Assembly: GCA_963771075.1 (NCBI GenBank)
Contig: CAVYSE010000004.1
Span: 12,689 to 76,688 of the forward strand
From: a candidate division FCPU426 bacterium
GTDB lineage: Bacteria; Oederibacteriota; Muellerivitia; Muellerivitales; Muellerivitaceae
Reading direction: 5' to 3'
DNA length: 64,000 bases
Part shown: positions 49,843 to 64,000 of the stretch, piece after piece
How the letters are laid out: the number at the start of each line of letters is the position of its first letter
Numbering within the stretch: position 1 is the stretch's first letter
Translations under genes and position numbers: made by a program
Notes under the pieces: model-generated
Told to the model about the DNA's origin: nothing
The model's database searches: none
What the model saw: only the letters and a program-made list of their open reading frames with translations

Positions 49843-49865
49843 ACATTTAACCGGGAGGTATGGAA

Positions 49866-50081
49866 ATGAGGAATTTAAGGAAAAACCAATCAGGGCAGGG
49901 AATGACCGAATATATCCTGATCATCGCCTTGATCGCCGTTGCGGTTATCGCCGCCGTCAAGATTTTCGGGGGCTCGCTGACGAGCGGTTTTAACAACGCC
50001 TCCGGGGCCATCGGCACCGCGACCGGAACCAGTTCCGCCCAAGGCGCCGCCGCAGCCGCAGGGGCCGTTGCAGGCCATTAA
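49866..50081 (+). CDS. flp: Flp type IVb major pilin
   Basis: SG|QGMTEYILIIALIAV; GGAGG RBS. Confidence 0.95.
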   Translation: MRNLRKNQSGQGMTEYILIIALIAVAVIAAVKIFGGSLTSGFNNASGAIGTATGTSSAQGAAAAAGAVAGH

Positions 50082-50086
50082 GAAAA

Positions 50087-50641
50087 GTGGCCAGCCCCGT
50101 TTCTCATCGGGGACAATCGCTTTCGGAGTTTTCACTAATTGTTCCCGTTTTATTTTTGCTCTTCTTCGCCTTAATCCAGGTGACTTATACAGCTTTTGCG
50201 GCCTTTTCAGTTCAGAGAGCCGCTTTTGCCATTGCACGCGAAGCAGCCGCTTCGAGCGATCCCAATTCTTATAATCCCTATTTTCAATTGGCTTATTGCC
50301 TCTCACCCTTAAGCCAAATCAGCCCGACCACAATGGCAACCGTTTTATCAACACGATGTGGCATTACTTACAACAGCGACACGGACGATTACGTCCAGGT
50401 TAGCGTGACCTATCCAATGCCCATCTGGATTCCTTTGGCCGGGAAAATATTCGGCCAGCCTTTTCAAGTATCATCAGCCCTTCGTTCCCCAATGGAAAGT
50501 ACATTGGAATTTGTTTTCGAATCCCTGGGTAAACCCAAACCCGACTTCTCGTTCAAACAGTTTTCTTTCCCCCATGTGCAAATGCTCACCTTCAAAGCCG
50601 AAGCTTTATGCGAAAATTCCGTCGGATACCAAAAGGAATAA
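50087..50641 (+). CDS. tadE: TadE-like pseudopilin
   Basis: RG|QSLSEFSLIVPVLF...AFAIAREAA; VQVSVTYPMP. Confidence 0.8.
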   Translation: MASPVSHRGQSLSEFSLIVPVLFLLFFALIQVTYTAFAAFSVQRAAFAIAREAAASSDPNSYNPYFQLAYCLSPLSQISPTTMATVLSTRCGITYNSDTDDYVQVSVTYPMPIWIPLAGKIFGQPFQVSSALRSPMESTLEFVFESLGKPKPDFSFKQFSFPHVQMLTFKAEALCENSVGYQKE

Positions 50642-50642
50642 T

Positions 50643-51872
50643 GTGCGACGTTTACAACGTTGGTCCACCACTCCCACCGGTCAGGTTTTGGTCGCAACCG
50701 TGTTTTTTTGCTTTATTTTCGCAGCTCTATTTATCGGGGTTTATAAATCGGGACTTCTGTATAACTCCAAGGGACGGGCAGTCCGAGCCACCGATTTGAC
50801 CAGTCTTTCAGGCGGGGCCGTTTATGCCAATGGAATGCAATTGGTCCGGTTGACCAATGTCCTCTTGACGGGTTTTCTTGCAATCGATCTTTTAATTTTA
50901 CTTGGTTCCATGGAGTTGACCGGAGGTTTGGCCAATTTCGTCTTACCCAAAATGCCTTTAACAAAGTTCGCGCAAACGGTTCAAAAAATACTTTTCGGAG
51001 TCGGTCTTCCAACCGGGGCCTATCCCTTCATGATCTTCATGGAAGCCAATCAATGTTCCAGAGATAACCAACTTACGAATAATTGGCCGGGTTTGACTTC
51101 CTGGGCCGTTCCAATTCCTCCCTCTCCTATCTTCCTATTTAACTTTGAAGGCTCCCTCACCCAAGCGTTTATTCCCAATATGGCCCTGAAATTCAGAACC
51201 CTTGATTATTTTGTTTTCAAATTACCCAAGGATGAGAAACCATCCCGGTATTACTACCGTGAAAAAAAAACCGGGATAATCCACTACTACAATGCCGATG
51301 AAGTGGTAGATGCGCGCAATCCAAGATACCCGGACCAAAAAAAAGTGAAAGTGGGCAATCGCTGGAAATGGGTCGGGTTAGAGGAAGAAGGTGAAAAAGC
51401 GGCTCAAGCCAATGAATTAACCATGGGTAAAGAAACGCAACAAGCTCTCCAAAAGGGTGAAAAAACCTTGGGGGCGGAGGCCAATAAAGAAGAAAAAGGG
51501 GTTTTTCAAGAATTTAAGGATAAAATCCCGTTTTTCGAGATGTTTAAACAAATCCCCATTGATGTTACCGACCGGGATGACCCTCCCGATCATACTTTCT
51601 TAGTCTATTCTTCCTTTCCTGGCACATCCACCGGTTTACTCGGTACCACCAACTCATTGCAATGTGTCAGCGAAACATCGGTGGAAGGGTCGGGGTTGGA
51701 CGCAACCAAGATTAACGACCCTCCCTACAGCGCCAAATTAAAACCCGCCGATACCTCCACGATAGCCAAATTTCTCAATGTTCAGACGATGGTAACTAAT
51801 TTGGCCAAAACGAACCAGCTGCCCAGTATCAACGATATGTTCAGCCTTTCCGGAATGGGGTCGTCCAAATGA
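50643..51872 (+). CDS. TadG-like pilus accessory protein
   Basis: TG|QVLV followed by a TM segment, then ATDLTSLSGG; GTG start inferred. Confidence 0.65.
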   Translation: MRRLQRWSTTPTGQVLVATVFFCFIFAALFIGVYKSGLLYNSKGRAVRATDLTSLSGGAVYANGMQLVRLTNVLLTGFLAIDLLILLGSMELTGGLANFVLPKMPLTKFAQTVQKILFGVGLPTGAYPFMIFMEANQCSRDNQLTNNWPGLTSWAVPIPPSPIFLFNFEGSLTQAFIPNMALKFRTLDYFVFKLPKDEKPSRYYYREKKTGIIHYYNADEVVDARNPRYPDQKKVKVGNRWKWVGLEEEGEKAAQANELTMGKETQQALQKGEKTLGAEANKEEKGVFQEFKDKIPFFEMFKQIPIDVTDRDDPPDHTFLVYSSFPGTSTGLLGTTNSLQCVSETSVEGSGLDATKINDPPYSAKLKPADTSTIAKFLNVQTMVTNLAKTNQLPSINDMFSLSGMGSSK

Positions 51873-52348
51873 CTAACCCCATATCCCAAATGGCCCAAGC
51901 CTTAACCGAAATGATTCTCGTGATTCCCATGCTTTGCCTGATGGGGGCTGGGCTTATTCAATTCACGCAAATATTTCTGGCCAAAAACGCATTCGATCAG
52001 GCTTGCGGACTCGCGGCCAGGGACTATGCCGCCAGCGAGATTGACGATACCCAATTTATTCAGGACGCCTGGGAAAATCTAGGCGAGGATCAACGCTACT
52101 TTATTCCCGGTTCCCTTCAAACCGAAAGCTTTACCGCGAACCCCTCCTTCATTGATCTCCTGACTAAAAACTTCAGCGTCCTTGGACCGGTCTTCTCGAA
52201 ATTGAAATCCGTAGTATCTAATTATTCCGGAAAGAATTGGCGAGTTTCCATTCAATTCAAGGGACCACCCTTTTTTGGGGTCTTATTCCCCGGCGGTTTA
52301 ACCTTTCAAACTCAATTGGCCGTTTTGAAATATCCGGAGGTGCCCTAA
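51869..52348 (+). CDS. TadE/TadF-like pseudopilin
   Basis: A|QALTEMILVIP...ACGLAAR. Confidence 0.8.
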   Translation: MTNPISQMAQALTEMILVIPMLCLMGAGLIQFTQIFLAKNAFDQACGLAARDYAASEIDDTQFIQDAWENLGEDQRYFIPGSLQTESFTANPSFIDLLTKNFSVLGPVFSKLKSVVSNYSGKNWRVSIQFKGPPFFGVLFPGGLTFQTQLAVLKYPEVP

Positions 52349-52350
52349 CC

Positions 52351-53088
52351 ATGAAAAACAAATGGTTTTGGGGGACCTTGTTGTTTTGGGCCATATTTTC
52401 TATTGCCATCATGGGCCGTGCCTTAATATTTTCCACTTTGCGGTTTGATCCAAAAATCATCAGCCAGTACGAAATTAAAACGAATGGCCTGACCCAATCC
52501 CATCGACTTTGGATGAATGAAGGCGATTTGGTGGATTTACTTCCCCTCATCAACGACCGCTTGCGCCGGGAAGGCTGGAACTCCTGCGCGGGAGGAATCG
52601 ACATGGTTCCCGACTTTCTTCAACTGGATGGCCTGGTTCCGGACATTTCCGAAAAACTTCAGATCAAAATGTTTCAAAAACCGGGATTTCACCTTGCCAT
52701 GGGACTTCTTCAACCTTCGGGAGAGTCCCTAACTTACGGCTGGGAGGGGATCTTACCCGATCGAATTCTTTCTTTAGATCAAGAACTCAAAGCTTGGAAT
52801 TTCCATTTTCCTGTGCCACCCGACGCTTCTCACTTAATTAACGAAAAACTGGCTAATCTTCAGATCGGCATGGTTATCCTCCCCCACCAACAAGGTTTGA
52901 CCCGCCGGTTTCTCAATCTCTGTCAGCAAGGCAACTGGGAAGCTTCGGAATGGAATAGCGGGACAGAATACCCAACTTTCTTTCTCACTCGAAAAGGTGA
53001 AAAACTCATGGCTGTTTTAAATCAACAAACTTCGCAAGATGTCATCACACTTCTTAACTTCATAAATCGAAAGGCCTTTTATGAATAA
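52351..53088 (+). CDS. Hypothetical membrane-anchored protein in the tad operon
   Basis: GGAGG RBS, N-terminal TM segment, tightly coupled to its neighbours. Confidence 0.7.
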   Translation: MKNKWFWGTLLFWAIFSIAIMGRALIFSTLRFDPKIISQYEIKTNGLTQSHRLWMNEGDLVDLLPLINDRLRREGWNSCAGGIDMVPDFLQLDGLVPDISEKLQIKMFQKPGFHLAMGLLQPSGESLTYGWEGILPDRILSLDQELKAWNFHFPVPPDASHLINEKLANLQIGMVILPHQQGLTRRFLNLCQQGNWEASEWNSGTEYPTFFLTRKGEKLMAVLNQQTSQDVITLLNFINRKAFYE

Positions 53089-53839
53089 ACGAATAGTTAT
53101 ACCCATGGGGTTAGGCATTCTATTCAGCCTGATCGCTTTTGCGTTTCTCTATCAGAAAGCATCTGATCTTGAGAAAAAAACCACCCTGGTTCCCGTATTG
53201 TTTTCTAAAACTTATATTTATCCAGGACAATTTTTATCCGCCAATTTAGTCGAAGCCAAATCAATCCCAGGAGAATATGTCAGCCCCAGTGCCATCATGG
53301 ATATCAAGGATGTACAAGGAGAAGCCGCGCTGGCACCCATTTCCGCCGGAGAACAAATTCTTTCAAACAAATTCGCTCCGCCAGATGCGTCCCTAGCTTG
53401 GTCCCTCAAATCCGGCCAAAGGGCCTTTACCCTGGAAGTCAACGAAGCCAGTGGGGTCGGAAACATGATACGTCCGGGAAATCATGTGGATATTCTGGTA
53501 AAACTAGCTTCCGGAAATCGAATCGTTACTTCCTTTGTTTTTCAAGATCTATACGTTTTGGCCACAGGCCAAAGGATCACCAAATCCAAGAACCTTTCAG
53601 ATTCTTCAGCCGATAACGCCACCAATTACAACACGGTCACCTTAGCCTTGACAGCCGATCAAGCCGAAACATTGATGTACCTGGAGGGTCAAAATTTAAA
53701 ACTAGTCCTCAGGTCAAACAATGATGATGAAACAGTAGATCTTCCTCCCATAACCGATACTGAGGCGTTGGCGAAAATCGGGCACTTTCAACACAAGGAA
53801 GGTCGGTCGCTGCAAGTTATACAAGGAGAATCAAGGTAG
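53081..53839 (+). CDS. cpaB: Flp pilus assembly protein CpaB/RcpC
   Basis: SAF domain, GQRAFTLEV, GVGNMIRPGNHVDI, VLATGQ and TVTLALT. Confidence 0.93.
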   Translation: MNKRIVIPMGLGILFSLIAFAFLYQKASDLEKKTTLVPVLFSKTYIYPGQFLSANLVEAKSIPGEYVSPSAIMDIKDVQGEAALAPISAGEQILSNKFAPPDASLAWSLKSGQRAFTLEVNEASGVGNMIRPGNHVDILVKLASGNRIVTSFVFQDLYVLATGQRITKSKNLSDSSADNATNYNTVTLALTADQAETLMYLEGQNLKLVLRSNNDDETVDLPPITDTEALAKIGHFQHKEGRSLQVIQGESR

Positions 53840-53867
53840 GTTTAAATCATTTTCGATGGAGGCCTTT

Positions 53868-54878
53868 ATGAATTTCCGACTTCAATTTTTATTCGCGTTA
53901 GTCCTGATCATGTCTGGAATCGCTTGGGGAGAAAATCAGGATATTCATCTCACCGTGGGAGAATCAAAACTACTTCACTTGGATTCCGCTCAAAAAATTG
54001 CCATTGCCAATCCATCGGTCGCCAGTGTCACTCCTGTGAGTGATGATGAAATCTTAATATCAGCGAAATCGCCTGGAAGTACAAACCTGGTTCTCATTTC
54101 TCCCGATGGCAGCAAGGAAACACGGCAAATTTTCGTGGCCAGTCACAATCTCAAGAAAGCCATGGTTGAAATAAACGTGGAAGTAATGGAAATTGACTAT
54201 CAAAGCTCCCTGATGGCAGGTTTAAGCTGGGGATCCGTCACCTCTCAAGGCGGAGGTGGTACATCTGGGTCATCCACTATCCCCAATAATTTAACTCTGA
54301 ATGAAGGAACCCCACCTTCCGTCTTTAATTTCGGAACAGTAACCAGGGACGCTTTGACAGCCAGCCTCCAATTGTTGGTAAACCGGGGAAAAGCCAAGGT
54401 TCTGGCTAAGCCTAAACTTCTGGCAGTTAGTGGCTCAGAAGCCAGTTTCTTATCGGGTGGCGAGGTTCCCTGTACTGTGGACACAAAGTTGGGTTCAGTG
54501 GATGTGCAATGGAAGCCTTATGGCGTTAAATTGAACGTTCGGCCTGAAATCGACGCGGAAGGTAACATCACCTCTTCCCTGAGGGCCGAAGTCAGCAGCA
54601 TTGACACGCAAAACGGATTGTCGATTAACAATACGGTCATACCAGCCCTCAAAACCAGATGGGCCGAAACGACAGTCTATATGAAGAGTGGAAGCACTAT
54701 GGTGATTGCAGGTCTTATCTCCGAGCAAAACCAAAAGCTCACTTCGGGAATCCCGCTGTTAAGTGATATCCCCTTGTTGGGAGAGCTATTCCGATCGACC
54801 AATGATCAAATGTCCCAATCCGAGCTCGTCATTTTCGTAACGCCCACACTCTTCGGACAAACCGAATCCTCTACCTGA
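53868..54878 (+). CDS. cpaC: Tad secretin CpaC/RcpA
   Basis: IAIANPSVA, LAKPKLLAVSGSEASFLSGGEVP, GIPLLSDIPLLGELFRS and ELVIFVTP. Confidence 0.92.
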   Translation: MNFRLQFLFALVLIMSGIAWGENQDIHLTVGESKLLHLDSAQKIAIANPSVASVTPVSDDEILISAKSPGSTNLVLISPDGSKETRQIFVASHNLKKAMVEINVEVMEIDYQSSLMAGLSWGSVTSQGGGGTSGSSTIPNNLTLNEGTPPSVFNFGTVTRDALTASLQLLVNRGKAKVLAKPKLLAVSGSEASFLSGGEVPCTVDTKLGSVDVQWKPYGVKLNVRPEIDAEGNITSSLRAEVSSIDTQNGLSINNTVIPALKTRWAETTVYMKSGSTMVIAGLISEQNQKLTSGIPLLSDIPLLGELFRSTNDQMSQSELVIFVTPTLFGQTESST

Positions 54879-54879
54879 C

Positions 54880-55344
54880 CTAATCCACCGGCGTGGGAGC
54901 TTCCTTCAGCCCTTCCACCACATCCCCGGCCTTCAGGCCGTTCTGGTCGAACCAGCTCTTGTTCATTTCCAGAGCGTACTTGGCCGGCCCGGCGGAGGGG
55001 AAGGTATCCTCCGTATAGGGGGGCATCTCCAGGATATTCTCGATCTTCCCCTGGTCGTCCATGAAGGCGATGCTCAAGGGGATTTGCGTATTCTTCATCC
55101 AAAAATACCTTTGGGTGTCATCGGAAAACACGAACAACATGCCATGGTCCCGGGGCATGCTGGCGCGGAACATCAGCCCCGCCATGCGGGTGGCTTCCTT
55201 GTTCGCCACCTCGACTTCGATGGTCTTTTGGCGCAGGGTCAACTTGGCGACCGGCAGGTCGGACTTGATCTCCTGCTTGCAACCGGCCAGGTCCACCACC
55301 AGTAGTACGGCGAACATAAACCAAACGCGGGTGTTTCGCCCCAT
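54880..55344 (-). CDS. DUF192 family lipoprotein
   Basis: LAGC lipobox, GLMFR, GMLFVF, FWMKNT and YALEM. Confidence 0.93.
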   Translation of the reverse strand: MGRNTRVWFMFAVLLVVDLAGCKQEIKSDLPVAKLTLRQKTIEVEVANKEATRMAGLMFRASMPRDHGMLFVFSDDTQRYFWMKNTQIPLSIAFMDDQGKIENILEMPPYTEDTFPSAGPAKYALEMNKSWFDQNGLKAGDVVEGLKEAPTPVD

Positions 55345-55380
55345 TACGAAAGCCCCTTTCGAACCGAAAATTGATTTAAA

Positions 55381-55410
55381 TTGACGCTTTTTGAAGCCTT
55401 GTCGTAAAAT
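55381..55410 (+). promoter_or_regulatory. Sigma70 promoter, probably giving a leaderless mRNA
   Basis: TTGACG-N18-TAAAAT, 6 nt before the ATG at 55417, with no SD sequence. Confidence 0.6.
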
Positions 55411-55416
55411 TAACAC

Positions 55417-56397
55417 ATGAGAAAAACACTTGGTTTTTTCCTCGTTCTCACCTTAGCACAAAGCCTTTCGCCCTTCCATGCCACAGCCGCTGGTCCGACC
55501 GAAGCCCAGCTCAAGACCGCCTACAATTACGCCGATAAGCTTTACGCCGCCCACCGTTTCCAGGACGCCCGCGACATCTTCAAGAAGATCGCCATGGCCA
55601 GCACCGACCCCAACCTGGACGCCAACGCCTTCTATTATTACGCCCAGTGCGCCTTTCACACCGAGGATTACGACGCCTGCGTCAAGGCCTTGGATATCCT
55701 GGTGCAGAAATACCCCAACTCCACCCCCGTTTCCGGCGGGTATGTTTTTAAGTTCTGCTATTTCCTCATCAACCAGGTCGTCCACATCCAATCCAAATGG
55801 GACTATTTCCGTTATCCCGAGGGCAAGGATGACAAGGGCGAGGTGGTCTGGAAAGAAAGTGTTCCCCCCGGCTACAAGATCAAGCGCATCAATTTCCGCC
55901 TGGGCTTTGGCCTCTACCGCGTCCTCAACCGGGTCTACTCAACTGCGCCCCAAACCGCAAAATGCAAGGCGGCCTTGGAAGCCATGCTCAAGACGCCCCT
56001 GACCATCAAGTGGGTGGATGAGAAGGCCCCGCCCGACCAATGGTTCCACCCCACCGATTTCATTTCCCTTTTTTCCATCACGGAGAAAAAGGCCTTTTCC
56101 AAGTTCATTTGCGACCGCATGTTCTACAACTGGAAGACCGAGAAACTGTACCTGTTCCTCGAGATGCACGACGACATCCGCAACCTGAAACCCCGTTTCA
56201 TTGCCATGACCAAAAACCTCGCCGATCCCGACGACGCCCCGCAGGTCGCTTCCGCCAACGGCGGGACTGCCTCGGATTACCAGGACCCCTACTACACCCT
56301 GACCCTGGAAAAGCTCTTCAACGCCACCGGTTATAACCCCTACGAGGACAGCTTCAAGAGCGTTATCGAATCCAGCCCCTCCGATCTGACGCTCTAA
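55417..56397 (+). CDS. Secreted TPR-containing protein
   Basis: Signal peptide; TPR-like YNYADKLY...AFYYYAQCAF...LVQKYPNS. Confidence 0.75.
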   Translation: MRKTLGFFLVLTLAQSLSPFHATAAGPTEAQLKTAYNYADKLYAAHRFQDARDIFKKIAMASTDPNLDANAFYYYAQCAFHTEDYDACVKALDILVQKYPNSTPVSGGYVFKFCYFLINQVVHIQSKWDYFRYPEGKDDKGEVVWKESVPPGYKIKRINFRLGFGLYRVLNRVYSTAPQTAKCKAALEAMLKTPLTIKWVDEKAPPDQWFHPTDFISLFSITEKKAFSKFICDRMFYNWKTEKLYLFLEMHDDIRNLKPRFIAMTKNLADPDDAPQVASANGGTASDYQDPYYTLTLEKLFNATGYNPYEDSFKSVIESSPSDLTL

Positions 56398-56400
56398 ACC

Positions 56401-56814
56401 ATGTTCCCCTTTAAGTCTTTCTCCCTTTGGTTCTTTTTGGTTTCTCTTTCGGTTTGTTCCACTCCCCTGTGCGCTAACTCGTCGAAGGACGAGGCCTCCG
56501 CGGACACGAACAGTTCTTCCGGGCCCTCGACCGCGGCAAGTTCGGATTCAATCCAACCCGATATTCCCCAAATCCAGCCCAAGGGCCAATCCTACACAAA
56601 GGCCCTGGTCATCCATAAACACATGCCCGACCCCGCTTGGGGAAAGATGCTCCAATACAAGAGCGATAACTCGGTGGATCCAAACACCAAGATGAAGGAA
56701 ACGGTCTATAGTTTCGTGTTTCAAGATGAGAAGGGTATTATCCGCGTCGCCAACTATCACGAGCACGAGGATGGCGAGGGTTATTGGGAAGTCTTTATAT
56801 GGGACCTGCCGTAA
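56401..56814 (+). CDS. Secreted hypothetical protein
   Basis: Signal peptide and Ser-rich linker. Confidence 0.65.
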   Translation: MFPFKSFSLWFFLVSLSVCSTPLCANSSKDEASADTNSSSGPSTAASSDSIQPDIPQIQPKGQSYTKALVIHKHMPDPAWGKMLQYKSDNSVDPNTKMKETVYSFVFQDEKGIIRVANYHEHEDGEGYWEVFIWDLP

Positions 56815-58841
56815 ATAAAACTTCGTTCATCATCGGATGGGTCGGCGCCAAGGGCGGTAACGGAACTTCCACCCTTTGCTCCCTGGCCGCGCGCCTATGG
56901 GCCCAACAGGCGGGATTACGCCTGGGGATCATCGATGCCCAGCCTCCTTCCTATTCTTCCCTTCCCGGCCTGCTTGGCATACCCCCCGCAACACGTCCTC
57001 TTTCGCAGTTGGCCCCCTATTTCGACCGGCTCACCCCCAAGGTTCTGGATAACGCCTTTCCCCGTTCCCCCGAGGGCGTCTTCTACATCCCGTTAAGGTT
57101 GAACGACGAACCCGGTTTCGACTTGAAAAAAGAAATCCTTTCCCTCCAGGCCATCCGGAGCCATTTCGACGCCCTTTGGATCGACCTTTCCGCCCTTCCA
57201 CCCGACCAGGCCTTGGCCCTGGCGGACGGGATGGACGCCTGCCTTTTGGTTTGCGCGCAAGATCCCTCGTCCCTCGCCGCCCTCGCGGCTTGGGAGAAAA
57301 GGATCCTGGCCCAGCACTTGGACCTGGCCCGTTATCATTTGGTGCTCAACCAGAACCGTCCGGGCTCTTCCATTAACCTGGAGGGCCTGCCCATCCCCCA
57401 AGGTTTTTCACGCATCGGCGCGGCGCCCTACCTTGGCGATAACCTAAGCCTCGCCCTCTGGGAAACCAAGGGCCTGCCGCCCTTGTTGGAAAAGCCCCTC
57501 ACGATCCTAACGGAACTGATCACTGGTTTTCATCGGTCCCTCAACCCGCTCGGGGCTTCTCCCGCGCCGGGAAAAATCGGCGGGGCGGAAGATCCCATCG
57601 AGATGGAAGAAATCCATCATTTCCACATGGGCCTGCTTGAACAACTACGGCGCCAGGGCTTGATGGAGGAAGGAAAGTCCGCCGGGGACCTGCGTGGCCG
57701 ACTGGAGCCGAGGGCCAGGGAAATCCTAAGCCAGCTTTTATCCGAACTTCCCCACCGTTCCCGGGAGACCCGCCAAAAGCTTATGGAGGAAGTTTTAGAC
57801 CTGGCCTTCGGCCTGGGCCCCCTCGAACACCTAATCCAAAATGAGGAGATCACCGAAATCATGGTGAACGGCCCTAACCGGGTCTATGTGGAAAAAAAGG
57901 GCCTTTTGGAGCTTACCGACGCCCGTTTCATGGACGAACTGCAATTGCGCACCGTCATCGAGCGCATTTTGGCGCCCATCGGCCGCCGCATAGACGAGAG
58001 CCAGCCCTACGTGGACGGGAGGCTTTTCGACGGGTCCCGCATCAACGCGGTGATCCCTCCCTTGAGCCTGAACGGGCCGACCCTGACCATCCGAAAGTTC
58101 TCCAAGAAGAAACTGGTCGTGGATGATTTGATCAAGTTCGGCTCCCTCTCCAGGGAAGCCGCAGACTTTTTGGGCGCCTGTGTAAGGGCCCGGAAGAACA
58201 TAGTCGTCTCCGGGGGAACCGGCTCGGGCAAGACCACCCTCTTGAACGTGCTGTCGAATTTCATACCGGAAACCGAGCGCATCGTGACGATAGAGGATTC
58301 GGCGGAATTGAAGCTGTCCCAGGACCACGTGGTCAGGTTGGAGGGCCGCCCCGCAAACCTGGAGGGCAAGGGACAGGTCAGCATCCGTGATCTGGTCATC
58401 AACGCCCTTCGAATGAGGCCGGACCGCATCGTGGTGGGCGAGGTTCGTGGGGCGGAGGCCCTGGATATGCTCCAGGCGATGAACACCGGACATGATGGTT
58501 CCCTCACCACGGGACATGCCAACAGTCCAAGGGATATCCTCTCCCGGCTGGAAACCATGTGCCTCTTCGCCGGACTGGACCTGCCCCTCAAGGCCATCAG
58601 GGAGCAGATCGCCCGGGCGGTGCATCTGGTGGTCCAGCAAAGCCGCCTGCCGGGCGGGAAAAGGTCGGTCACCCACATCACGGCCCTGCAGGGCATGGAG
58701 GGGGATGTGGTCATGCTTCAGGACCTGTTCACCTATACAGAAAGCAAGGGTTTGGAAAGGGGCAACTTCGCCCCCGCCTTCATTGAGGACCTCAACCGCA
58801 TCGGTTACCATTGGCCTGGGCACGGGGGCCAAAAGTCCTGA
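56799..58841 (+). CDS. cpaF: Fused CpaE/TadZ-like domain and CpaF/TadA pilus ATPase
   Basis: N-terminal deviant Walker A GAKGGNGTST; C-terminal GLGPLE, EIMVNG, GGTGSGKTT, IEDSAEL, LRMRPDRIVVGEVRG and MNTGHDGS. Confidence 0.92.
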   Translation: MGPAVNKTSFIIGWVGAKGGNGTSTLCSLAARLWAQQAGLRLGIIDAQPPSYSSLPGLLGIPPATRPLSQLAPYFDRLTPKVLDNAFPRSPEGVFYIPLRLNDEPGFDLKKEILSLQAIRSHFDALWIDLSALPPDQALALADGMDACLLVCAQDPSSLAALAAWEKRILAQHLDLARYHLVLNQNRPGSSINLEGLPIPQGFSRIGAAPYLGDNLSLALWETKGLPPLLEKPLTILTELITGFHRSLNPLGASPAPGKIGGAEDPIEMEEIHHFHMGLLEQLRRQGLMEEGKSAGDLRGRLEPRAREILSQLLSELPHRSRETRQKLMEEVLDLAFGLGPLEHLIQNEEITEIMVNGPNRVYVEKKGLLELTDARFMDELQLRTVIERILAPIGRRIDESQPYVDGRLFDGSRINAVIPPLSLNGPTLTIRKFSKKKLVVDDLIKFGSLSREAADFLGACVRARKNIVVSGGTGSGKTTLLNVLSNFIPETERIVTIEDSAELKLSQDHVVRLEGRPANLEGKGQVSIRDLVINALRMRPDRIVVGEVRGAEALDMLQAMNTGHDGSLTTGHANSPRDILSRLETMCLFAGLDLPLKAIREQIARAVHLVVQQSRLPGGKRSVTHITALQGMEGDVVMLQDLFTYTESKGLERGNFAPAFIEDLNRIGYHWPGHGGQKS

Positions 58842-58875
58842 CAGGTCTGCCTTCAAAAGCGTCCTCGGAGGATTC

Positions 58876-59625
58876 TTGATTTCAAACCATTTGTTGGGCC
58901 AATGGAAAGAAGATGAAAAGGCGCCGTTCTCAGGATGGGATTTTTCCCGGTTAAAGGACCGTTGGGAAGAAGAGATGCCTCCTTGGGACTACATCCGGAT
59001 GGCCAAAAGGCTTGTGCCCGGTTCCACCGCCCTATTGGATATGGCCACGGGGGGCGGTGAGATATTCGCGACTTTAGCCCCCTTCCCTGCTTCGACTTTC
59101 GCCATCGAAGGCCACCCGCCAAATGTTCCTATTGCCCAAAAACTCCTTTCGCCTTTGGGGGTAAAAGTCCTATTGGCGCCAGAGACAAAGCCTTTGCCTT
59201 TCGACAATGAATCCTTTGATCTCGTATTAAACCGCCATGGGGGTACCAACCCGCCGGAAATCAGCCGTATATTGAAAAAAGAAGGGCGCTTCATGACCCA
59301 GCAAGTCGCGGGTGACAGCCTAAGCGGCCTGATGTCGGTGTTCGGCGCTAAACCCAAATGGCCGGATCATACATTTGCAAATGCATTCGTGAATTTTCAA
59401 AAGGCGGGTTTTGAAATCCTTGAAAGCTGTGAATGGACCGGCACCCGGCATTTTTACGACGTCGGGGCCGTGGTTTATTTTCTCAAGGCCGTTCCTTGGC
59501 TCGTTGACGAATTCAGCGTGGATAAGTTCCTCAAGGAATTGGAAATACTGCAGGGGAAAATAGAAGCGGAAGGGGTTTTGCGCTTCTCGGAAAGCCGATT
59601 CCAGTTTTTGGCCAAAAAGAAATAA
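58876..59625 (+). CDS. Class I SAM-dependent methyltransferase
   Basis: TTG start after GGAGG; FSGWDFS, LLDMATGGGE, LPFDNESFDLVLNRH and TQQV. Confidence 0.88.
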   Translation: MISNHLLGQWKEDEKAPFSGWDFSRLKDRWEEEMPPWDYIRMAKRLVPGSTALLDMATGGGEIFATLAPFPASTFAIEGHPPNVPIAQKLLSPLGVKVLLAPETKPLPFDNESFDLVLNRHGGTNPPEISRILKKEGRFMTQQVAGDSLSGLMSVFGAKPKWPDHTFANAFVNFQKAGFEILESCEWTGTRHFYDVGAVVYFLKAVPWLVDEFSVDKFLKELEILQGKIEAEGVLRFSESRFQFLAKKK

Positions 59626-59643
59626 GATTGGGCGTGATTACAC

Positions 59644-59671
59644 TGTCCACGACGGGGACCCATCGTGGACA
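59644..59671 (+). repeat. 28-bp palindromic repeat, copy 1
   Basis: TGTCCACGACGGGGACCCATCGTGGACA. Confidence 0.95.
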
Positions 59672-59694
59672 GATAAGATTGGAGGGCGACAGAC

Positions 59695-60351
59695 ATGAGC
59701 AAATTACGCATTAACTGTTTAGGATTATCCCTTGATGGATACGGAGCGGGACCTAACCAGAGCCTTGATAACCCCCTAGGGGTTCGAGGCCCGGAGCTGA
59801 TGGGTTGGTTCTTTCCCACGCGGACATTTAAAATGATGCACGGCGACGGCAAGGATGGAACCATCGGTCTGGATGAAACTTACGCCAAACAGAGCATGGA
59901 AAACGTCGGCGCATGGATATTGGGCCGCAACATGTTCGGCCCCATCCGCGGCGCGTGGCCGGATGAATCGTGGAGGGGCTGGTGGGGTGAGAACCCTCCC
60001 TATCATGTGCCCGTTTTTGTCCTGACCCATCACCCCCGAAAATCCATAAAAATGGAGGGGGACACCACCTTTCATTTTGTGACGGAAGGCTATGAAACCG
60101 CGCTGAAGCAAGCAAGGGAGGCCGCCGGGAAGAAAGACATCCGCCTTGGCGGCGGGGTTAATACTATTCGCCAATACCTTAACGCCAAGCTTATCGATGA
60201 GATGCACTTGGCCATGTCCCCAGTCTTGTTAGGTTCGGGCGAACATCTATTGTCAGGTATAGACCTCCCGGCTCTTGGATATCAGGTCGCTAAACACGAA
60301 GCATCTGAGGCGACGACCCATATAACCATTGTTCGTAGTCAAACCAAATGA
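59695..60351 (+). CDS. Dihydrofolate reductase / RibD C-terminal family protein
   Basis: SLDGYGAG, ILGRNMF, PVFVLTH, GGGVNT and LIDEMHL. Confidence 0.93.
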   Translation: MSKLRINCLGLSLDGYGAGPNQSLDNPLGVRGPELMGWFFPTRTFKMMHGDGKDGTIGLDETYAKQSMENVGAWILGRNMFGPIRGAWPDESWRGWWGENPPYHVPVFVLTHHPRKSIKMEGDTTFHFVTEGYETALKQAREAAGKKDIRLGGGVNTIRQYLNAKLIDEMHLAMSPVLLGSGEHLLSGIDLPALGYQVAKHEASEATTHITIVRSQTK

Positions 60352-60410
60352 ACTATGGATATAAGACCTAACCCCAGACAAAAAGCCGCACAAATTCCAG
60401 GTTCTAAGCC

Positions 60411-60438
60411 TGTCCACGAAGGGGACCCATCGTGGACA
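60411..60438 (+). repeat. 28-bp palindromic repeat, copy 2
   Basis: TGTCCACGAAGGGGACCCATCGTGGACA. Confidence 0.95.
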
Positions 60439-60495
60439 GCGAAAAACGGATAATGGTAACCTCAATTTTTACAAATTAAGTTTAGAGGTTGTCGA

Positions 60496-60717
60496 TTGAA
60501 ACACTATCAAGTCGTTTTTGTCTGTTCTTTTTTGTGTGTATTGCTTCTTACTTCTGGTTGGCTAATAACTTTAATTAAAGACAAAACTAAACACAAAGTA
60601 TGGGAGAAGAGTTGGGGCCTTTATATACTTGTTCTTATTTCGGGTACTCTTTTTATCGCTGGCGTTTGGGAAGGTGTAATCGACACTACTGGATGGTGGG
60701 GGCCAGGGATTGGTTGA
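60496..60717 (+). CDS. Small AT-rich membrane protein (2 TM)
   Basis: TTG start after GAGG; fills the interval between repeat copies 2 and 3. Confidence 0.6.
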   Translation: MKHYQVVFVCSFLCVLLLTSGWLITLIKDKTKHKVWEKSWGLYILVLISGTLFIAGVWEGVIDTTGWWGPGIG

Positions 60718-60735
60718 GTAAAAATGATTCAACAA

Positions 60736-60763
60736 AGTCCACGACGGGGACCCATTGTGGACA
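60736..60763 (+). repeat. 28-bp palindromic repeat, copy 3
   Basis: AGTCCACGACGGGGACCCATTGTGGACA. Confidence 0.93.
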
Positions 60764-60791
60764 AGAGAAAAACTGTGTTTTTTAGATTGGC

Positions 60792-61010
60792 TTATAAGTT
60801 ATTGAATTCTTCTATGCTCAAACCAGCTTGTTTTAAAAGCTTCTTCAATAACCCCTCGCCCAATTCTCTGTGCTGAGGAATGGACAATGTCCACAAATAG
60901 CCATCTTTCACCATCATGACGTGGGAACCTTTTTGACGGGCAACAGACCAACCGGCTTTTTGAAAATTTTTAACGGTTTGGGAACCGGAACAAAGCTTGA
61001 GGTGGGGCAC
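60792..61010 (-). CDS. hicA: HicA family toxin
   Basis: GWSVARQKGSHVMM, IPQH and GLLKKLLKQAGLSIEEF. Confidence 0.93.
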   Translation of the reverse strand: MPHLKLCSGSQTVKNFQKAGWSVARQKGSHVMMVKDGYLWTLSIPQHRELGEGLLKKLLKQAGLSIEEFNNL

Positions 61011-61210
61011 TAGACATTAACCGAGACCAACTTGCTCTTATGAATCCGTTGTTTGGATTCCATGACTTCCATCCAACCCTCAATGGCCTCATGGATATTC
61101 TTCACGGCTTCCTTGCGGGTCTTGCCTTGGGAAAGGCACCCCGGTAAAGCCGGAACTTCGGCCACGTAATAACCTGAATTATCTTTTTCGAGAGTAATGT
61201 GAAATTTCAT
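61010..61210 (-). CDS. hicB: HicB family antitoxin (short form, no DNA-binding domain)
   Basis: YVAEVPALPGCLSQGKTRKEAVKNIHEAI. Confidence 0.93.
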   Translation of the reverse strand: MKFHITLEKDNSGYYVAEVPALPGCLSQGKTRKEAVKNIHEAIEGWMEVMESKQRIHKSKLVSVNV

Positions 61211-61316
61211 GTTTGACCTCTGAATTCATTTAACTAGAAGAAGAGATGAAGGTCAAGTCGGCATTCGGGAAGATGAATTTAACTTTTGTTTTAAGTGCTA
61301 AAATCACAGATGCGGT

Positions 61317-61344
61317 TGTCCACGAAGGGGACCCGTCGTGGACA
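61317..61344 (+). repeat. 28-bp palindromic repeat, copy 4
   Basis: TGTCCACGAAGGGGACCCGTCGTGGACA. Confidence 0.95.
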
Positions 61345-61371
61345 AGCAAAAAGTAAAGAAGGTCTTTCAAT

Positions 61372-61989
61372 TTGAAAAATAAAACCAAAATCAGTCTTAT
61401 TATGAAAATTTTAAATTTTAGTTCTTATCCGAAAAAATTTCTTTGGTTTATTGCAGGATTAGTTTTTATATTGGATTTGAACGCCTTGATCTCTATGGCT
61501 GTCTTTCAAATAGTTTCTAAAAATAAATTCTTAGGCATTTCAATATTTTTCTCCGCCCTGCTGTCCGTGATAGGAGCCTATCTTTTTCGCATCCCCATAT
61601 TGAATAAAATATTGAGCAAAACACGGGGAATCGATTTTAAGCGGAAAAATAAAAAGCCGCTTCTCTGGGGGCTTACTACTCAAATTTATATAGGACTTGG
61701 AATATTTTTGGGTTTGGTTGTTATTGTTTTCATGGCTCTAGTGAAAGATATTGATGTTATTGATCCAATTGTTTATGTCGCTATTGTTTTGATCAGTTCA
61801 GGGGTTCTCTACTTTTGTTTTCTTCTGTTGAGGGATTCTTTTAATAAGTTCCATTACAAAGGATGGAAAAAAACTAAGAAATTTTCTCCATTGCGAAAAG
61901 TTTGGGTGGCATCCATGTTCTTTTCTTGGGGTACACTTGCCGGGATATTCATTGGTTGGGTGATATCGGCAATCGTGTTTCTGATTTAA
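61372..61989 (+). CDS. AT-rich multi-pass membrane hypothetical protein
   Basis: About 5 TM segments; start at 61372 or 61402. Confidence 0.65.
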   Translation: MKNKTKISLIMKILNFSSYPKKFLWFIAGLVFILDLNALISMAVFQIVSKNKFLGISIFFSALLSVIGAYLFRIPILNKILSKTRGIDFKRKNKKPLLWGLTTQIYIGLGIFLGLVVIVFMALVKDIDVIDPIVYVAIVLISSGVLYFCFLLLRDSFNKFHYKGWKKTKKFSPLRKVWVASMFFSWGTLAGIFIGWVISAIVFLI

Positions 61990-62004
61990 AAATAGATTTT
62001 ACCT

Positions 62005-63972
62005 GCAGAGTAGAGCGCTGGCGCGTATGCCTTAGAGTACGGTGGCGAATCCAACCCTTTCGGATTGGGCCTCAGTCCGGCTCTCATCACCACGTTTCCA
62101 GCGCCCCCTCATCAAACCGTACGTGACCTTTTCGATCATACGGCTTTCCGACAACCTTTCAACCGGCAGCATTCAAGGCAAAAGCTGGAATCCAGTTCAA
62201 ACCAAGGCGTTTCACTTCCTCGATCGACCATGTTCGTCCTTCCCAGGCGTACTTATGCCTCCGAAACAAAGTCAGCCTTTCGAGTACGTAAAATTGAAGC
62301 TTGGAAAAGTATGGCTGGCTGTCCCCAATTCGGAAATAGTTGGCCCACCCCCTTAACACCGGGTTCAAAGCCTTCGCTACATCCTCCATTGGAGATAAGA
62401 GCCGCTCTCGGCCCGCCGTCATCTGCTTCACTTTCTCGGCGATTTTCTTCATGGCCTTCCGGCTCGGCCAGCTCAGGCAACAGGTCTTACCCAATCCTAC
62501 CACCGGCATACCTACTCGAAAGTGGAACCCAAGGAAGTCAAACCCTTCCTTCCCAGGCCCCATTTCCACCAGCCGTGTCTTTTCGGGGTGCAGTTCAAGC
62601 CCTAGTCGTCCCATCAATTCCTTGATGACTTCCAGGCTCTTTTCCGCATGGGCTTGGCTTCCGCACAACACCACAAAATCGTCGGCGTAGCGCACCAGCC
62701 TACCCAGTTTCCTGTGCCTCTTATTCCAAACCTTGTCCAGCAAGTGAAGGTAAACATTGGATAACAGCGGTGAGATCACCCCGCCTTGCGGTGTCCCTCG
62801 GAGAGTCGGCGTAAGCCTTCCTTCCTCAAACACACCCGCCTTCAGCCACCCTCGGATCAGTTTCAAAACCTTCCGGTCACTGATCCTCTGGCGCACCAGC
62901 ACCATCAGTTTGTCGTGGTCGATGGAATCGAAATACTTCCGAATATCTCCATCCACCACCCATCTGTACCCGCCATTGATCCACTTCTTGATCTCCCGGT
63001 GGGCCTGCTGGGCTCCGCGTTTTGGCCGAAATCCAAACGAGCCTTCCAGAAAGTCCGCCTCAAAGATGGGTTCCACCACCTTCCGGCAAGCCGCTTGAAC
63101 TACCCGATCCCGAATTACCGGGATTCCCAACGGTCTCTTGCTTCCATCAGGCTTGGGTATTTCCACTCGTCTCACAGGTTTAGGCAGATACTTCCCAGCT
63201 TTGAGTTCTTCCTGGATGCCCTTCAGGAATGGAATAATTCCCACCTTCTCTTCGATCCATTCCAGCGTTTCCCCGTCCACTCCTCCTTGGCCTTTATTAG
63301 CCTTCACCTGTTTCCATGCCGCTGTCAGGACATCCCATCGGGTCATCCTGTCATGCAGTACATGAAATCTCCGGCTTGGGCTCCTCTTGGCCGCTCGGTA
63401 TAGCGCCCTTTGAAGGGTTCGCGCCTTGTCTTCGGAGTTGTTGGCCCTTTGGGGCATGCTCCAGCGCCTCCCTTTTGAAGGTTGCTTGGTTGAAGCAGGG
63501 GTCCTTCCCTCCAGGTGGTTTTGTTGTCCACCCTTCACAGGTATTGTGACCCCCTCCGACTTCCTCCCGCCCTTGCCCCTTTTCGGTTTTAGCCTTATAG
63601 CGGCAAGTCTTTTGGGGGAGGATCCCAGGTTGCTTGCAAAGCCTTTCCAGCATTCCGTTCCCCATACGCCGGAGGACTTGCCCCGCTTGCTCCAGATTCT
63701 TCAGCGGGATCGTGGCCTTCGCCGGTAGACACGCGGCTCGGCATCCTCTTGCACCTTTCGGTGTCCCATTCACGACGCGGCAGGATTCACTTGATGTTGC
63801 GGACTGCTAGATTGTTCCTCACTGAATGAGGTTTATGACCCCGTTTCGGGCAGAACCTCTCGGTCCTACGCCGGGGGCTGGCACAGCTCTCTGGCGATTA
63901 CTGGTCAGGATTTGGGCTGGCCCTCTTCGGCCTACTCCCTCACCTGCTGGCTCTACAAACCTTCGCTGGCAC
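62005..63972 (-). mobile_element. Group II intron (about 1.97 kb, IIB-like, no En domain)
   Basis: 5' end GTGCCAGCG at 63972; domain V AAGCCGTATGATCGAAAAGGTCACGTACGGTTT after the ORF stop; domain VI GGGGCGCTGG...CCAGCGCTCTACTCTGC ending near 62005. Confidence 0.9.
62159..63457 (-). CDS. ltrA: Group II intron reverse transcriptase/maturase
   Basis: RPLGIPVIRDRVVQ, SFGFRP, DIRKYFD, GTPQGGVISPLL, YADD, FDFLGF, X domain LNPVLRGWANYF; no HNH domain. Confidence 0.97.
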   Translation of the reverse strand: MPQRANNSEDKARTLQRALYRAAKRSPSRRFHVLHDRMTRWDVLTAAWKQVKANKGQGGVDGETLEWIEEKVGIIPFLKGIQEELKAGKYLPKPVRRVEIPKPDGSKRPLGIPVIRDRVVQAACRKVVEPIFEADFLEGSFGFRPKRGAQQAHREIKKWINGGYRWVVDGDIRKYFDSIDHDKLMVLVRQRISDRKVLKLIRGWLKAGVFEEGRLTPTLRGTPQGGVISPLLSNVYLHLLDKVWNKRHRKLGRLVRYADDFVVLCGSQAHAEKSLEVIKELMGRLGLELHPEKTRLVEMGPGKEGFDFLGFHFRVGMPVVGLGKTCCLSWPSRKAMKKIAEKVKQMTAGRERLLSPMEDVAKALNPVLRGWANYFRIGDSQPYFSKLQFYVLERLTLFRRHKYAWEGRTWSIEEVKRLGLNWIPAFALNAAG

Positions 63973-63974
63973 GA

Positions 63975-64000
63975 TGTCCACGAAGGGTCCCCGTCGTGGA
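63975..64000 (-). repeat. 28-bp palindromic repeat, copy 5 (inverted, cut by the window edge)
   Basis: Reverse complement reads TCCACGACGGGGACCCTTCGTGGACA. Confidence 0.93.

Follow-up and report, generated by a model that had tools for sequence, protein, structure and literature searches.

Known cassette systems and how the array compares

The capture and shuffling of gene cassettes is known from integrons and pdif modules, both of which are run by tyrosine recombinases. Here we describe a 64,000-nucleotide stretch of DNA (the window), the last 64 kb of contig C4 in the genome of an uncultured candidate division FCPU426 bacterium (G000), which ends in an array of gene cassettes separated by copies of a 28-bp palindrome. 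Each copy of this site has a 13-bp arm, an asymmetric GA core and an inverted 13-bp arm. An earlier note on the same DNA proposed a cassette capture or shuffling system with its own site, and the comparisons below support that proposal. The cassettes almost certainly move at the site. The palindrome is probably the double-stranded site of a serine recombinase, with a cassette comprising the DNA between the midpoints of two successive sites. These are mobile cassette arrays of an apparently undescribed kind; no description of such a system was found in a literature search at the level of titles and opening lines of abstracts.

As in integrons and their orphan arrays (clusters of attC sites lacking integrases, CALINs), cassettes of one or two genes stand in tandem, mostly co-oriented, and many carry toxin-antitoxin or unknown genes; cassettes are shared across genera and orphan arrays lack an enzyme; a distinct site lies beside the recombinase gene and introns target the sites (PMC8618304). 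Unlike in integrons, the enzyme would be a serine rather than a tyrosine recombinase, the 28-bp site is conserved in sequence and lacks structural covariation, exchange appears to take place inside the palindrome, the cassette genes read toward the 3' end of the recombinase gene, and there are about 17 arrays per genome. IntI binds attC as a folded strand (PMC8618304). Cargo, gene orientation and intron targeting do resemble those of chromosomal integrons (PMC8618304), as would suit a highly aberrant integron (CALIN) whose attC sites are short and non-canonical, but we give this explanation hardly any credence. As the earlier note had said of the window's copies, attC cores are lacking: RYYYAAC...GTTRRRY cores in attC order occur in 0 of 99 short sites. 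Exchange falls within the palindrome rather than at its base, and IntI (TIGR02249) was found in 0 of 31 family genomes at E 1e-30, a threshold at which no control genome scored either.

The pdif (dif) modules of Acinetobacter, which are worked by XerC/XerD, also have 28-bp sites with the crossover within the site, and they carry toxin-antitoxin and accessory genes that shuffle between molecules (PMC13141974). The palindrome differs from the pdif sites described there in that its two arms are copies of one motif and its copies are direct repeats rather than alternating. The arrays are also chromosomal, with a dedicated serine recombinase linked to them. Its sequence is unrelated, showing by inspection no likeness to the pdif sequences in Table 1 of that source, which agrees with the earlier note's view that it does not resemble dif.

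Large serine integrases (LI/A118, Bxb1, phiC31) have the catalytic and recombinase domains of the enzyme considered below and a palindromic site with an asymmetric central dinucleotide (PMC3783163, PMC5499577). The present enzyme is unlike them in having neither zinc ribbon nor coiled coil. Its site would be 28 bp rather than about 50, and in place of one attP/attB pair there are about a hundred near-equivalent sites with re-assorted arms (112 in G000).

Distribution of sites and arrays

The 112 sites of G000 comprise 99 short sites and 13 with a 37-base hairpin insert. Short sites were called at 18 bits or more with a profile built from the copies; the reversed genome gave no profile match at 12 bits or more. 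The sites fall into 28 clusters, 17 with two to 17 sites each and 11 single, and for 101 of the 112 another site lies no more than 6 kb away (1000 random draws: mean 28.8, maximum 46). The array that the earlier note described is real but not single: the genome holds about 17 multi-site arrays. Adjacent sites are direct repeats in 80/84 pairs, and the largest open reading frame (ORF) is co-oriented with the sites in 60/68 intron-free intervals. Mean GC content is 0.44 in intervals shorter than 1.5 kb, against 0.53. When 75 co-oriented ORFs from intervals of up to 2.3 kb were scanned against Pfam, 23 were of toxin-antitoxin type, 3 were GNATs and 33 matched no family. Of 30 other family genomes, 24 contain the motif, which makes 25 site-bearing genomes with G000; it was found in 0 of 30 sampled genomes outside the family, and viral contigs contained no exact match to it.

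Several local features of the arrays were also recorded. At G000:C26:139250-143721, array DNA is duplicated in inverted form with many small errors, perhaps a fold-back assembly artefact; of the four adjacent pairs that are inverted, one comes from this duplication. Two arrays are headed by a shared radC module with a 500-bp repeat upstream of it (G000:C8:88546-89900 and C12:15850-18145), and this repeat is found ahead of ardC too. More degenerate outer arms at array ends were considered and found unconvincing: in nine G000 arrays, mismatches in the left/right arm were 1.2/2.6 for last, 0.5/2.5 for middle and 0.4/1.4 for first sites. A promoter inside the site was likewise dismissed, as -10-like hexamers showed no peak 17 bases past the right arm (offsets up to 31).

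Cassettes move, and arms travel with them

We compared 409 cassettes from 18 genomes, G000 completely and the others in part. Thirteen cross-genome cassette pairs align end to end at 85-100% identity, two of them at 100%, and their homology ends at the sites on both sides. None of the 13 shares a neighbour on either side. The window's hicBA cassette (60737-61304) recurs on a contig from sequencing run X2; the two versions show 53 differences, and a different 1.5 kb precedes the X2 copy. Homologues of the window's cargo have a site at the matching end in G017 and a site upstream in G002; RibD-like homologues in G001, G011, G023 and G028, and a hicA-like homologue in G004, lie without scored sites. 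None of these loci keeps the window's gene order.

The arms locate the exchange. Among 554 distinct sites, we took pairs that share one 40-base flank (at least 95% identity) and not the other, excluding intron flanks and keeping a spanning tree. The 20 pairs with common downstream DNA show differences at 4 right-arm positions, where 64.6 are expected. In the 25 pairs with common upstream DNA, the left arm differs at 11 positions against 39.4 expected, and the right arm at 63 against 80.8. Rare left-arm variants at positions 1, 8, 9 and 11 follow the upstream DNA (4 pairs). Each moving cassette thus has a right arm at its start and a left arm at its end. Because each arm travels with its own cassette, the exchange point, as judged from these patterns, is inside the site, between positions 7 and 16. 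The GA core is found in 528/554 sites, a figure inflated by the profile-based selection of sites. Position 16 is C in 485/554 sites and differs in 5/48 upstream-sharing pairs.

The two arms do not covary (Fisher p 0.48), and at all 13 pairs of positions their pairing equals the expectation from base frequencies. The site therefore behaves as double-stranded DNA with interchangeable arms, and selection for a hairpin was rejected. These data bear on the idea that the palindromes are REP-like (repetitive extragenic palindromic) hairpins spread by HUH (Y1) transposases, with the genes between them being accumulated insertions rather than units recombined at the repeat. G000 does have 20 Y1-family matches, four of them no more than 2.6 kb from a site; the site sequence folds into a hairpin (-5.5 to -10.5 kcal/mol, as DNA), and 11 of the 28 clusters are single sites. 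Unlike repeats of REP-associated tyrosine transposase (REP/RAYT) systems, however, the sites are clustered and co-oriented and bound mobile genes, shared-cassette homology stops at them on both sides, and no Y1 gene is directly flanked by one. The arms assort independently without covariation, and arm exchange strongly contradicts this idea, which we regard as very improbable.

The same observations bear on a target of 11-6-11 or 10-8-10 geometry for a tyrosine recombinase, Xer/pdif-like, acting in trans. The pdif length is also 28 bp and the geometry fits 11-6-11 (PMC13141974), the mapped interval 7-16 is compatible with a staggered cut, and G000 has 8 tyrosine recombinases. Against this, position 16, which lies within such a spacer, varies between partners and so would be poorly tolerated by a tyrosine-type overlap of 6-8 bp. 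No XerD scores above the curated cut-off (best 164.7 vs 329.6 bits; genome 96.7% complete), and all 8 enzymes lie at least 26 kb from a site or on site-free contigs. Together with the differences from pdif in sequence and repeat orientation given above, these results make a tyrosine recombinase improbable. Tyrosine and Y1 enzymes as neighbours of the sites were ruled out by distance. A lone 345-aa tyrosine recombinase at G000 C6:114288 is the likeliest chromosome-dimer resolvase.

A short serine recombinase gene adjoins a site

The earlier note expected a recombinase encoded outside the window. A candidate was found, and as the contig ends at 64000 it lies on another contig: G000:C8:80002-80835 is the genome's single resolvase-family match, and 14 bp separate the end of its gene from an array's last site. 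The 277-aa product has a Resolvase domain (13-159) and a Recombinase domain (189-272) and ends before the zinc ribbon. Its predicted fold matches serine integrases; the structure model is weak (mean pLDDT, the predicted local distance difference test, 63.5; five sequences) and confirms the domain layout only. The protein is 56% identical to a full-length relative of 510 aa. A homologue search limited to 151-492 aa returned short relatives in 19 clusters (275-283 aa, 68-96% identity), the next matches being at 61% or less. These clusters and the G000 protein form one clade (100/100, tree of 48 rows). The catalytic motifs of the short recombinases are invariant, and all 20 short rows end before the CxxC that is present in 9 full-length loci.

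The intact short gene occurs in 5 of 99 genomes of the phylum, and all five belong to the family and bear sites. A site lies 8-36 bp past the recombinase stop in 5/5 of them, split by an intron in G020. In a metagenome set of 80 loci, a site follows the stop in all three evaluable short-clade loci (L171, L169 and L172, at about 9, 35 and 110 bp); the sequence of L170 ends inside an arm. Overall, 8/8 evaluable short-clade loci have a site past the stop, and 0/36 more distant relatives with at least 200 bp downstream do. Tail remnants of the recombinase adjoin sites at 3 more places in G000, where 5'-truncated copies in three other arrays all end at one variant of the site, and also in G002, G004, G008, G014, G020, G021 and G029. 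We think it likely that the short serine recombinase recombines the sites.

Some tail remnants form gene-less cassettes between two sites (L274:1478-1643 in G002 and L278:1339-1542 in G004). A 23-bp palindrome adjoins the recombinase-side site in several genomes. The same palindrome occurs alone in five genomes upstream of a gene that is MarR-like by eye (G000:C28:247167, which is L302; L277, L280, L288 and L295), and is possibly a shared operator.

The recombinase gene sits among ardC, radC and related island genes, and in both G000 and G004 the array has the recombinase on one side and radC-type island genes on the other. The recombinase-linked array of G004 consists of two cassettes. Its far-end site has the sole left arm of its type among the 554 sites, and the site at the recombinase stop has the matching right arm, a type seen in 3/554. 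In L171, both rare arms are joined in a single site 9 bp past the recombinase stop. The G004 pattern is the one expected if cassettes had entered a dedicated site next to the recombinase gene at its centre and so split it.

It could instead be that the cassette boundaries are real but worked by another enzyme, the element of the short serine recombinase merely landing there as the introns do. Introns and hairpin inserts do parasitise the sites, the recombinase-ardC-radC block of G027 itself lies between two co-oriented sites, and most arrays have no recombinase beside them. However, an enzyme that integrates its own element at the sites recognises them and could move any cassette. The position of the array in G000 and G004, the rare platform site split in G004, and the finding that no other enzyme consistently adjoins the sites also argue against this explanation, and we consider it unlikely.

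Proposed mechanism and its weak points

In the mechanism that we propose for the short serine recombinase, a dimer would bind the two 13-bp arms and cut at the GA, whose asymmetry would fix orientation. In the phage integrase described in PMC3783163, the stretch contacted by the recombinase domain is 13 bp and that contacted by the zinc ribbon is positions 16-24, and site orientation in serine integrases is set by the central dinucleotide. If the recombinase domain covers 13 bp and the zinc ribbon is lost, a 13-2-13 site would therefore be read without distinction between attP and attB. Removal of the coiled coil makes that phage integrase promiscuous (PMC5499577). An enzyme without the one-way domains of phage integrases could recombine any two co-oriented sites, giving excision, insertion and exchange. 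The gene would ride on mobile DNA that bears ardC and radC and has its own platform site. Most arrays would be orphans, served in trans or left behind, and the window's array would be one of these. Group II introns and small hairpin elements may use the sites as safe landing places.

A number of observations weigh against this account. Once its coiled coil is removed, that phage integrase recombines poorly between molecules (PMC5499577). An enzyme that lacks the entire zinc ribbon might also no longer bind. Of the 25 site-bearing genomes, 20 have no intact gene; with the queries used here, neither gene nor tail was found in G001, G003, G018 or G025. This type of tail follows only 12/554 sites. 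The site of L172 points the opposite way, and L173 is full-length yet 67% identical, so that the identity gap is not absolute. As to the exchange point, the likelihood of a crossover is best after position 7, with positions 11-15 merely 1-6 log units lower, and the GA core as crossover point is compatible with the data, not proven. The left arm in downstream-sharing pairs is also closer than background (16 vs 31.5), one rare position-9 variant follows the downstream DNA, and 4/20 downstream-sharing pairs are recombinase-tail sites. Finally, in four sequencing runs compared with the window (runs with small shares were left out), neither a clean excision joint nor an excised circle turned up.

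With these points weighed, it is reasonably likely that this is a third, independently evolved cassette system beside integrons and pdif modules: a phage-type serine integrase, having shed its direction-control domains, would act as a two-way shuffler on a 28-bp site, with a family-wide cassette pool and a platform site by its own gene. The enzyme would be the first natural, minimal and bidirectional member of the large serine integrase lineage. A serine-based system, if true, would mean that the strategy evolved again with different chemistry, and that tools that seek attC or intI miss whole cassette pools (Pfam assigns no family to 33 of the 75 cassette proteins scanned, and 23 are of toxin-antitoxin type). 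Nature would also provide in this enzyme a test of whether a recombinase can be active without zinc ribbon and coiled coil and requires them just to set direction. As a tool, a 277-aa recombinase with a 28-bp site would be compact.

The array at the end of the window

The features at the end of the window are as follows (window coordinates; site copies are predicted recombination sites).

58906..59625, + strand: methyltransferase gene, downstream of the Tad ATPase gene and ahead of site 1, with no site upstream of it
59644..59671, + strand: site 1, the array's first; complete arm-GA-arm copy
59695..60351, + strand: cassette 1 gene, RibD C-terminal-domain (DHFR-fold) protein of 218 aa (Pfam PF01872 RibD_C, E 1.7e-14)
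60411..60438, + strand: site 2, complete copy
60496..60717, + strand: cassette 2 gene, hydrophobic ORF of 73 aa, no Pfam family
60736..60763, + strand: site 3, complete copy with 2 mismatches
60792..61010, - strand: cassette 3 hicA toxin gene of a bacterial toxin-antitoxin pair (PF07927), reversed relative to the sites
61010..61210, - strand: cassette 3 hicB antitoxin gene (PF15919)
61317..61344, + strand: site 4, complete copy
61372..61989, + strand: cassette 4 gene, hydrophobic ORF of 205 aa, no Pfam family
62005..63974, - strand: group II intron at the base of site 5 (RF00029, 43.4 bits; gathering 40)
62159..63538, - strand: intron-encoded reverse transcriptase/maturase with a YADD motif (PF00078 RVT_1, PF08388 GIIM)
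63975..64000, - strand: site 5, 26/28 bases, truncated at the contig end; core opposite in orientation to sites 1-4, orientation uncertain

The earlier note had counted five copies, the last inverted, and none before them. Four are complete, and positions 1-59643 contain no site at 3 mismatches or fewer (0 matches in 100 shuffles). The fifth is truncated, and its orientation is doubtful because it follows an intron present in 10 copies and lies at the very end of the contig, where window positions 63600-64000 show eight small indels against the contigs of four runs and mark a low-quality contig end. The inversion could be an assembly join. Site-to-site spacings are 767, 325, 581 and 2658 bp, the last being 688 bp without the 1970-bp intron, much as the earlier note gave them. 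Its assignment of one module to each interval holds for RibD_C and hicBA by Pfam; the label "membrane" for the 73-aa and 205-aa ORFs has hydrophobic sequence as its sole basis. Three modules are clearly AT-richer than the backbone, as it had stated of all four, and the RibD module only slightly so, given its GC of 0.52 (intervals in order 0.52, 0.37, 0.42 and 0.33, vs 0.55 for 1-59643).

Behind the orthologous Tad ATPase gene, neither methyltransferase nor site occurs within 1.5 kb in 5/5 relatives examined, and the window's array is therefore an insertion. The methyltransferase gene, to judge from its absence at the same place, is part of the inserted DNA and not a bounded cassette. A joint between 59671 and 60398 in run X2 was rejected as evidence of excision, since one of its sides is just 28 bases long and consists of the site. 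The array follows a Tad/Flp pilus locus (49860-58841), in whose last gene a MinD-like N-terminal part is fused to a CpaF-type ATPase (685 aa; similar lengths in relatives).

Introns and hairpin inserts at the sites

Group IIC-attC introns are group II introns specialised for the base of a cassette recombination site. The intron of the window resembles these in lying at the base of a cassette site; it differs in that its target is the 28-bp palindrome and in entering from either side. Each of the ten full copies in G000 begins at a site base, 7 entering from one side and 3 from the other, and related introns lie at site bases in five other genomes. An Rfam scan of 58000-64000 returned intron families only. 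This intron family has two extra bases ahead of the usual 5' motif, and the 3' exon begins with A in 10/10 copies. A different group II intron lies within the recombinase-side site of G020, after position 11 (L105:15167-17100).

Hairpin inserts of 37, 39, 47, 57, 65 and 91 bases separate the arms in several genomes; they are similar to REP-type hairpins. Examples are found at G000:C26:130146-136818 and 9 other places, and at L069, L116, L148 and L149. In some of them both junctions carry a GA core, which gives them the look of very small cassettes without a gene.

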